From Escherichia coli (lineage in GTDB: Bacteria > Pseudomonadota > Gammaproteobacteria > Enterobacterales > Enterobacteriaceae), in NCBI RefSeq assembly GCF_030384885.1, contig NZ_CP128613.1: a DNA stretch of 64,000 nucleotides; one strand, written 5' to 3'. The position numbers and the translations under genes were made by a program. Below the pieces are notes generated by a model that saw nothing but the letters and a program-made list of their open reading frames with translations, did not search any database and was not told where the DNA came from. Of this stretch, positions 10,203 through 37,695 are shown in pieces (the first letter of the stretch is position 1; each line of letters begins with the position of its first letter).

Positions 10203-10568
10203 GTCGACAGGGAGTCAGACAACGAAGTGAACATCAGGATGATGACACTTCTGAAGGACACACCAGGAGGGTGTTTCAGGGAAAGGCTTCTGGATGAAGC
10301 GAAGAGGATGACGCAGGACGCGTTAAAGGACACCTCCAGGATGGAGAATGAGAACCGGTCAGGATGATTCGGTGGGTCAGGAAGGCCAGGGACACTTCAG
10401 GATGAAGTATCACATCGGGGTGGTGTGAGCAGGAAGCAATAGTTCAGGATGAACGATTGGCCGCAAGGCCAGAGGAAAAGTTGTCAAGGATGAGCAGGGA
10501 GCAACAAAAGTAGCTGGAATGCTGCGAAACGAACCGGGAGCACTGTGAATACAGTGCTCCCTTTTTTT
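10203..10568 (+). ncRNA. csrB: CsrB small RNA (CsrA-sequestering)
   Basis: About 18 copies of CAGGA(U/A)G-type GGA motifs in roughly 360 nt, beginning GTCGACAGGGAGTCAGACAACG and ending in hairpin GGGAGCACTGTGAATACAGTGCTCCC plus T7; no credible ORF. Confidence 0.9.
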
Positions 10569-24408: not shown

Positions 24409-26061
<1,653 letters not shown>

Positions 26062-26133
26062 GTAAAAAAGTTAGAACGGCAACGCGTACCCAGGGTACGC
26101 GTTGTTTGTCTGGAGTTTCAGTTTAACTAGTGA

Positions 26134-27447
<1,314 letters not shown>

Positions 27448-27465: not shown

Positions 27466-27498
27466 TAAAAATGCCAGCCTTCGGGCTGGCATTTTTTA
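27466..27498 (+). terminator. Rho-independent terminator after eno (possibly bidirectional)
   Basis: aaaaatGCCAGCCttcgGGCTGGCattttttat: 7-bp GC-rich stem, 4-nt loop, T-run; the minus-strand TPM gene ends 9 nt downstream. Confidence 0.8.
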
Positions 27499-36836: not shown

Positions 36837-36885
36837 GAGAAAGGTAACTTCCCTCTCGCGGGGGAAGTTACCTTTCTTTTTTTTT
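36837..36885 (+). terminator. Intrinsic-terminator-like hairpin in the ygcW 5' leader (attenuator candidate)
   Basis: GAGAAAGGTAACTTCCC-loop-GGGAAGTTACCTTTC followed by T9; ends about 25 nt before the ygcW ATG. Confidence 0.65.
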
Positions 36886-36909: not shown

Positions 36910-37695
36910 ATGTCAATCGAATCTCTCAATGCGTTCTCAATGGATTTTTTCTCCCTGAAAGGTAAAACCGCAATTGTTACTGGTGGGAATAGCGGTTTAG
37001 GCCAGGCATTTGCCATGGCACTGGCAAAAGCAGGCGCAAATATCTTTATTCCTAGTTTCGTTAAAGATAATGGCGAAACAAAGGAAATGATTGAAAAACA
37101 GGGGGTTGAGGTGGGCTTCATGCAGGTGGATATCACCGCAGAAGGCGCGCCGCAGAAGATAATTGCCGCCTGTTGTGAACGTTTCGGCACCGTCGATATT
37201 CTGGTTAACAATGCCGGTATATGTAAGCTGAATAAGGTGCTGGATTTCGGTCGTGCCGACTGGGACCCGATGATTGACGTGAACCTGACCGCCGCATTCG
37301 AGTTAAGCTACGAAGCGGCAAAAATTATGATCCCGCAGAAAAGCGGTAAAATCATTAATATCTGTTCACTGTTTTCTTACTTAGGTGGTCAATGGTCTCC
37401 TGCTTATTCTGCCACTAAACACGCCCTTGCCGGATTTACCAAAGCCTATTGCGATGAATTAGGTCAATATAATATTCAGGTAAATGGTATTGCCCCAGGA
37501 TATTACGCTACCGATATCACCCTGGCGACACGCAGTAATCCAGAAACCAATCAGCGCGTTCTTGATCATATTCCAGCAAACCGTTGGGGCGATACTCAGG
37601 ATTTAATGGGCGCAGCCATATTTCTCGCAAGTCCGGCATCGAATTATGTCAACGGGCATTTATTAGTGGTTGATGGCGGTTATTTAGTGCGCTAA
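36910..37695 (+). CDS. ygcW: Short-chain dehydrogenase/reductase
   Basis: ORF track starts 36835; ATG at 36910 gives MSIESLNAFSMDFFSLKGKTAIVTGGNSGLGQAFA (TGxxxGxG Rossmann motif). Confidence 0.82.
   Translation: MSIESLNAFSMDFFSLKGKTAIVTGGNSGLGQAFAMALAKAGANIFIPSFVKDNGETKEMIEKQGVEVGFMQVDITAEGAPQKIIAACCERFGTVDILVNNAGICKLNKVLDFGRADWDPMIDVNLTAAFELSYEAAKIMIPQKSGKIINICSLFSYLGGQWSPAYSATKHALAGFTKAYCDELGQYNIQVNGIAPGYYATDITLATRSNPETNQRVLDHIPANRWGDTQDLMGAAIFLASPASNYVNGHLLVVDGGYLVR

Follow-up and report, generated by a model that had tools for sequence, protein, structure and literature searches.

The 87-nt spacer between pyrG and eno in Escherichia coli holds a perfect palindrome, and the question that it raises is whether the repeat acts as DNA or as folded RNA and, if as RNA, whether it ends, protects or primes for processing the message that runs through it. 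The eno product, enolase, is a glycolytic enzyme and also a component of the degradosome. The locus lies in a 64,000-nt stretch of an E. coli genome, hereafter the window. A preliminary description, made from the sequence alone, gave the length of the gap correctly, as the ends of the two coding sequences confirm (Table 1). A 311-nt query spanning the spacer matched 5425 of 5426 complete E. coli genomes, at one place in each and with pyrG and eno as the annotated genes; in E. coli 2013C-4282 the match to the window was 100%. Escherichia albertii NBRC 107761 has exactly this spacer; that of K-12 MG1655 differs from it at two positions, 26076 (A; G in K-12) and 26092 (A; T in K-12), which fall in a predicted internal loop and in the hairpin loop, respectively, and are thus both unpaired. 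Window positions 26050–26150 correspond to 2,907,940–2,908,040 on the minus strand of K-12. In the river isolate E. coli SB0258h1, 8 nt (TAAGTAAA) are duplicated in tandem at the pyrG stop codon (positions 311–318 of its extracted locus, L002), outside the hairpin.

Table 1. Features of the pyrG–eno locus. Positions are those of the window, except for the apex insertions, which are numbered within each extracted locus; negative numbers are counted from the eno start codon.
Feature	Position	Strand	Basis and remarks
pyrG (CTP synthase) coding sequence, stop codon included	24424–26061	+	Open reading frame list; RefSeq annotation of the identical DNA in E. coli 2013C-4282
pyrG–eno spacer, 87 nt	26062–26148	+	5′ leader of eno on all transcripts that start in or before pyrG
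5′ end −77 (former enoP6), reported as RNase III-dependent	26072	+	Olvera 2009 (PMC2759082) and Lee 2019 (PMC6872547); position converted to the window
Extended hairpin, predicted	26072–26112	+	Minimum free energy folds; lower stem 26072–26075/26109–26112 beyond a 2 × 2 internal loop
Folded RNA hairpin, 13 bp	26078–26106	+	11 Watson–Crick pairs plus G26078–U26106 and G26079–U26105; loop CAG at 26091–26093; about −19.7 kcal/mol
Perfect palindrome	26080–26104	+	Central base 26092, A here and T in K-12
Leader segment TTTGTCTGGAGTTTCAGTTTAAC	26105–26127	+	Directly 3′ of the hairpin; invariant, with Y allowed at one position, in 45 of 80 species
5′ end −27 (former enoP4-P5), reported as RNase III-dependent; accumulates on rng deletion	26122	+	PMC2759082 and PMC6872547; position converted to the window
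Start of the 18-nt leader that remains after the main RNase G-dependent cleavage	26131	+	Clarke 2014 (PMC4191395); window position inferred
eno Shine–Dalgarno sequence GAGGAA	26137–26142	+	Sequence; invariant in the alignment
eno (enolase) coding sequence	26149–27447	+	Open reading frame list and RefSeq annotation
Apex insertions in loci L022, L036, L039, L042, L043, L045, L048, L050, L063 and L071	about 1000–1200 in each locus		pyrG–eno spacers

A repeat search between 26000 and 26200 returned this palindrome as the sole inverted repeat, with 12-nt arms, CAACGCGTACCC at 26080–26091 and GGGTACGCGTTG at 26093–26104, that are 100% complementary. The preliminary description had placed a perfect repeat with arms of 10–11 bp at 26083–26106. 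The perfect pairing stands, but the position was shifted by 2–3 nt, the string AACGCGTACCC-A-GGGTACGCGTT occupying 26081–26103, and the arms are longer than was given. Likewise, the repeat is centred in the gap only approximately, as its central base sits 13 nt to the pyrG side of the gap midpoint. The palindrome 25-mer is unique in the window even when up to three mismatches are allowed. Three places in the 64-kb window have perfect arms of 12 nt or more separated by no more than 8 nt, against a mean of 0.05 in first-order Markov simulations; these are the pyrG–eno palindrome, the eno terminator at 27467–27496 and a repeat at 36838–36877.

When folded as RNA, the 87-nt spacer has a minimum free energy of −27.9 kcal/mol (z = −3.24 against dinucleotide shuffles). 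The top pair of the palindrome is unable to close as RNA, which yields the CAG loop of a 13-bp hairpin whose 5′ base lies about 17 nt past the pyrG stop. The pairs of the lower stem in the extended fold are kept by about 70–85% of species, with zero compensatory changes, and are retained within Enterobacteriaceae only. At the DNA level the palindrome most likely mirrors an RNA hairpin in the eno intercistronic leader, of which it encodes the upper stem.

The other repeats of the window can be described alongside. The one at 27467–27496, AAAAATGCCAGCC-TTCG-GGCTGGCATTTTT, lies 20 nt past the eno stop, consists of perfectly complementary 13-nt arms with A5 and T5 flanks, and from its sequence has the shape of a bidirectional intrinsic terminator. 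At 36838–36885, perfect 16-nt arms (AGAAAGGTAACTTCCC and GGGAAGTTACCTTTCT) enclose an 8-nt loop and are followed by T9; this element is intergenic, about 30 nt before an ATG at 36911, and has the appearance of a very strong terminator or else of a leader element. A further perfect inverted repeat with 11-nt arms, GGGAGCACTGT-GAAT-ACAGTGCTCCC, is present at 10536–10561.

A scan for the Eno N-terminus with one genome per species gave 80 loci from Enterobacteriaceae, Erwiniaceae, Pectobacteriaceae, Yersiniaceae, Hafniaceae, Budviciaceae, Morganellaceae and four Vibrio species; pyrG was directly upstream in 79 of them, and the spacers were extracted. Nearly all of these spacers contain a hairpin whose 3′ end lies about 40 nt upstream of the ATG, the stem being 10–17 bp long in most genera, and the fold of the spacer had a z score below −2 in 94% of cases. 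In the alignment used for covariation analysis, which comprised 37 species, RNAalifold predicted the basal nine pairs of the hairpin, with compensatory double changes in six of the nine. The cells of this basal helix were paired in 95.7% of cases, as compared with 18–61% in slid controls, and 47 cells with double changes were counted, as compared with 14.9 ± 2.9 in column shuffles, none of 500 of which reached 47. The covariation in these 37 species supports the basal 9–11 pairs. These results show that the hairpin exists, far beyond chance expectation, and that it has been kept by compensatory evolution.

The sequence of the stem itself differs among genera. The 5′ arm reads CAACGCGTACC in Escherichia and Enterobacter, CAATGCACCC in Klebsiella and Citrobacter, CGGTGCACC in Salmonella, CAGCGCCCC in Kluyvera, CAACGCGCGGTC in Serratia, AACCTCTTGAA in Erwinia persicina, GTAAGTGGCGG in Photorhabdus, and GGATAGC or GGGTAAC in Vibrio. 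While this stem covaries, the adjoining 23 nt past the hairpin (TTTGTCTGGAGTTTYAGTTTAAC) are unchanged in 45 of the 80 species, across many genera, and the Shine–Dalgarno region is invariant throughout the alignment. Covarying stems beside an invariant flank indicate an element that acts as a folded strand and argue against a protein operator with sequence-conserved half-sites. The constancy of the 23 nt points to sequence-specific contacts, which may be nuclease sites, ribosome or S1 binding, or others; the invariant leader would thus be the place to seek sequence-specific nuclease and ribosome contacts.

Published work on the same spacer in E. coli supplies the RNA ends. The primary eno starts of Olvera et al. 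2009 (PMC2759082) lie at −212, −731, −760 and −903, all inside pyrG, or transcription comes from the pyrG promoter. In Lee et al. 2019 (PMC6872547), four rnc-dependent 5′ ends are described in the spacer, sites 1 and 3 being the former enoP6 and enoP4, and a "large hairpin" is placed upstream of the Shine–Dalgarno sequence. The same study reports that the segment from −87 to +60 suffices for the response of an eno-cat fusion to RNase III as well as RNase G, and that a model hairpin RNA was cut in vitro by RNase III and only afterwards by RNase G near the Shine–Dalgarno sequence. Romero et al. 2014 described a pair of RNase III sites as priming the eno message so that RNase G inactivates it, and Clarke et al. 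2014 (PMC4191395) reported that cleavage at the main RNase G-dependent site, at −18, leaves a 5′ leader of 18 nt, and also mentioned an RNase E-dependent site in the spacer. The function being published (Lee 2019, Olvera 2009, Romero 2014, Clarke 2014), the element and its general role are already known, and the present work adds no new mechanism. The view of the preliminary description that the repeat is a processing or stability hairpin of the co-transcribed pyrG-eno message rather than a terminator is supported on two counts: the RNase III-dependent 5′ ends reported in PMC6872547 and PMC2759082 flank the hairpin on either side, and the hairpin recurs in the corresponding place across Enterobacterales and in Vibrio, its stem carrying compensatory changes.

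We consider it probable that the hairpin supplies the structure on which a two-step pathway operates, with RNase III acting before RNase G, and we infer that the palindromic stem itself is the duplex recognised by RNase III. According to this account, every eno transcript would carry the hairpin and be read through it. RNase III-dependent cleavage at or around the hairpin would trim the long primary transcript to shorter eno mRNAs that begin at −77 and −27, and these shortened species, presumably 5′-monophosphorylated, would for that reason be open to RNase G, which a 5′ monophosphate stimulates and whose cut at −18 would then inactivate the message. Removal of the hairpin has in addition been proposed to open the ribosome-binding site and so to improve translation. 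The net effect would be that enolase is tuned post-transcriptionally and independently of PyrG, and the leader hairpin belongs to the published pathway through which the two nucleases adjust the enolase level, for example under anaerobiosis.

The geometry of the mapped ends fits simple cleavage of the stem imperfectly. In the predicted folds, −77 pairs with −37 and not near −27, so that the published ends do not form a 2-nt-staggered pair across the hairpin, the classical mark of RNase III being paired cuts that leave a 2-nt 3′ overhang. Both ends, at 26071/26072 and 26121/26122, fall between an AG and a following UU, in A/U-rich surroundings that are predicted to be single-stranded, a context which we take to resemble RNase E/G sites rather than cuts within a helix. 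Furthermore, the 13-bp upper stem, the 2 × 2 internal loop and the 4-bp lower stem together amount to about 19–20 bp-equivalents, which is at the low end for RNase III substrates, and the lower stem is weakly supported by the comparison.

A different function, in which the hairpin stabilises the 3′ end of pyrG mRNA, is unlikely but plausible. The stable stem (−19.7 kcal/mol), 17 nt past the pyrG stop, is suitably placed, and from the 5′ end at −27 one expects an upstream fragment that stops shortly past the hairpin; such a role is moreover compatible with the processing account, with which it could coexist, and falls within the wording of the preliminary description. However, the end at −77 implies that the hairpin is also severed from pyrG, and stabilisation of pyrG leaves the RNase III response of the spacer-only eno-cat fusion unexplained. 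No 3′ end is recorded in the spacer in the Term-seq tables of Adams 2021 consulted here, which is weak evidence, the eno terminator being absent there too.

We regard as improbable the view that the hairpin is a leaky intrinsic terminator, or attenuator, that releases a fraction of polymerases after pyrG and so sets the pyrG:eno ratio, with processing as a secondary matter. In its shape the element comes close to one: a GC-rich stem core, CGCGUACC/GGUACGCG, is followed by the U-rich UUGUUUGUCU, the loop falls within the 3–8 nt of an intrinsic terminator, and the equivalent hairpin of Vibrio is followed by UUUUAGUUUUGA, a classical tail. An intrinsic terminator would have a nearly unbroken U tract, with about 6 or more U in 8, directly 3′ of the stem; here the tail counts 6 U in 8 (UUGUUUGU) if the stem is taken to end at G26101, but only 3 if the whole 13-bp stem is counted. 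The earlier statement that no U-tract follows is accordingly correct in that there is no run of more than three U, but it passed over the fact that the 3′ arm continues into an interrupted U-rich stretch with 7 U in 10 (26102–26111). Against termination, the first U residues pair with upstream A and G, and in Morganellaceae the hairpin is kept with a tail that is not U-rich (CCUGAAAUGUAAC). Since the reported primary eno starts are without exception upstream of the hairpin, read-through is obligatory for the abundant enolase to be made, which argues against efficient termination. The Adams 2021 Term-seq tables consulted here list no 3′ end at 29079xx or 29080xx, a weak point, as the eno terminator is absent there as well. 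A scan for consensus promoters and terminators also found no site in the spacer; its silence on terminators is uninformative because it missed the eno terminator at 27467–27496, where A–T or G–T pairs absorb the T tract.

It seems quite improbable that the true RNase III substrate is a sense–antisense duplex over the spacer and that the hairpin is incidental to cleavage. Lee et al. 2019 (PMC6872547) offer the grounds for this idea: the in vitro RNase III cuts on the hairpin RNA differ from the ends found in vivo and a cis-antisense RNA is invoked, in vivo product 1 arises in vitro only with antisense RNA added, and disruption of the chromosomal spacer abolishes regulation, which a fragment expressing the antisense RNA restores. 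In the same study, however, the endogenous antisense RNA is reported as undetectable on northern blots. Antisense pairing does not need a palindrome, and if the hairpin were incidental, compensatory changes would not be expected to maintain it in several Enterobacterales families and in Vibrio as well. The strong covariation speaks against the hairpin being incidental to an antisense mechanism, and its reach across Enterobacterales and as far as Vibrio, next to 23 nt that hardly vary, supports the hairpin itself, not an antisense duplex alone, as functional.

Very doubtful is a larger arrangement in which the processing hairpin would be part of an undescribed, order-wide leader architecture, its stem enclosed by a helix between the last six codons of pyrG and the eno leader. 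The pyrG tail at 26041–26056 (−108 to −93) is predicted to be able to pair with the invariant leader at 26106–26121 (−43 to −28), enclosing the hairpin. Among the 37 species this helix is 95% paired, with one-sided changes only and many G–U pairs, and RNAalifold does not predict it in the same 37-species alignment. It also appears to be dispensable for RNase III responsiveness, to judge from the −87 to +60 fusion in Lee 2019 (PMC6872547). If such a helix did form, whether the composite duplex arises would depend on the ribosomes that terminate on pyrG, and PyrG translation would in this way be coupled to the processing of the eno leader.

Scarcely credible is a DNA-level element bound by a dimeric protein, whether as an operator or as the −35 region of a promoter within the spacer (enoP4-P5). 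The perfect dyad of the repeat would suit an operator, and in Olvera 2009 (PMC2759082) the listed promoter sequence, GCGTACCCTGGGTACGCGTTG...CAGT, covers the palindrome and a 105-bp fusion gave chloramphenicol resistance. The half-sites, however, vary between genera with pairing kept, which is the signature of a folded strand; the consensus scan found no sigma-70-like site in the spacer; and the −27 end is reported to be lost without RNase III and has been catalogued as a processing site. The stem sequences thus differ by genus with complementarity retained, in place of the conserved half-sites sought for an operator. A dispersed repeat of the REP, BIME or ERIC type was ruled out by the single copy per genome in 5425 of 5426 E. 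coli genomes and by the uniqueness of the 25-mer in the window. In an Rfam scan of the spacer, the best overlapping match was nrdJ RNA on the minus strand, at 17.2 bits and E = 3 against a gathering score of 40.3.

The apex of the hairpin has a history of its own in part of the order. In about ten species, from Tenebrionibacter, Siccibacter, Mangrovibacter, Erwinia, Pantoea, Limnobaculum and Budvicia, the basal stem is retained and an insertion of 90–130 nt at the apex gives a long imperfect hairpin. The insertion of Erwinia sp. 198, inside the hairpin, contains a presumptive ERIC-core-like sequence, AGTAAGTGACTGGGG, as judged against the ERIC primer sequences, and this insertion matches one to four unannotated places in each E. 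coli genome. The insertions of Siccibacter and Mangrovibacter and the remaining ones outside Erwinia sp. 198 are lineage-specific, and an Rfam scan of the ten insertion-bearing loci found no family that matches the inserts. The apex of the hairpin is a site that was expanded independently several times, and it may be a tolerated or preferred landing site for ERIC-like or other palindromic insertions in at least five lineages.

Several known systems resemble the pyrG–eno hairpin. REP/BIME and ERIC elements are likewise transcribed intercistronic palindromes able to modulate mRNA stability, whereas the pyrG–eno palindrome of E. coli is single-copy and vertically inherited at one locus. With Rho-independent terminators it shares a GC-rich stem, a 3-nt loop and a U-rich 3′ flank, and its Vibrio homologue looks canonical; it differs from them in its interrupted U tract, in the obligatory read-through and in being kept in lineages without a U tract. 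The closest system is the pyrG–eno RNase III/RNase G region of E. coli K-12 itself (Ow et al. 2003; Jourdan & McDowall 2008; Lee et al. 2019), which is the same locus with the same spacer, hairpin and leader; the window shows no functional difference from it, only two unpaired bases (26076 and 26092) having changed. The rpsO–pnp hairpin and the adhE 5′ leader provide the nearest parallels at other loci. The pnp hairpin is longer, at about two helical turns, and serves to autoregulate PNPase, whereas the pyrG–eno stem is short (13 + 4 bp), and the published pyrG–eno ends lie at the flanks of the hairpin and are not clearly staggered within the stem. In both, as at pyrG–eno, RNase III cleaves a stem-loop in a leader or between cistrons and creates a new 5′ end, which alters translation and exposes the downstream message to further decay, and in adhE, too, RNase G is the next enzyme to act, leaving an 18-nt leader.
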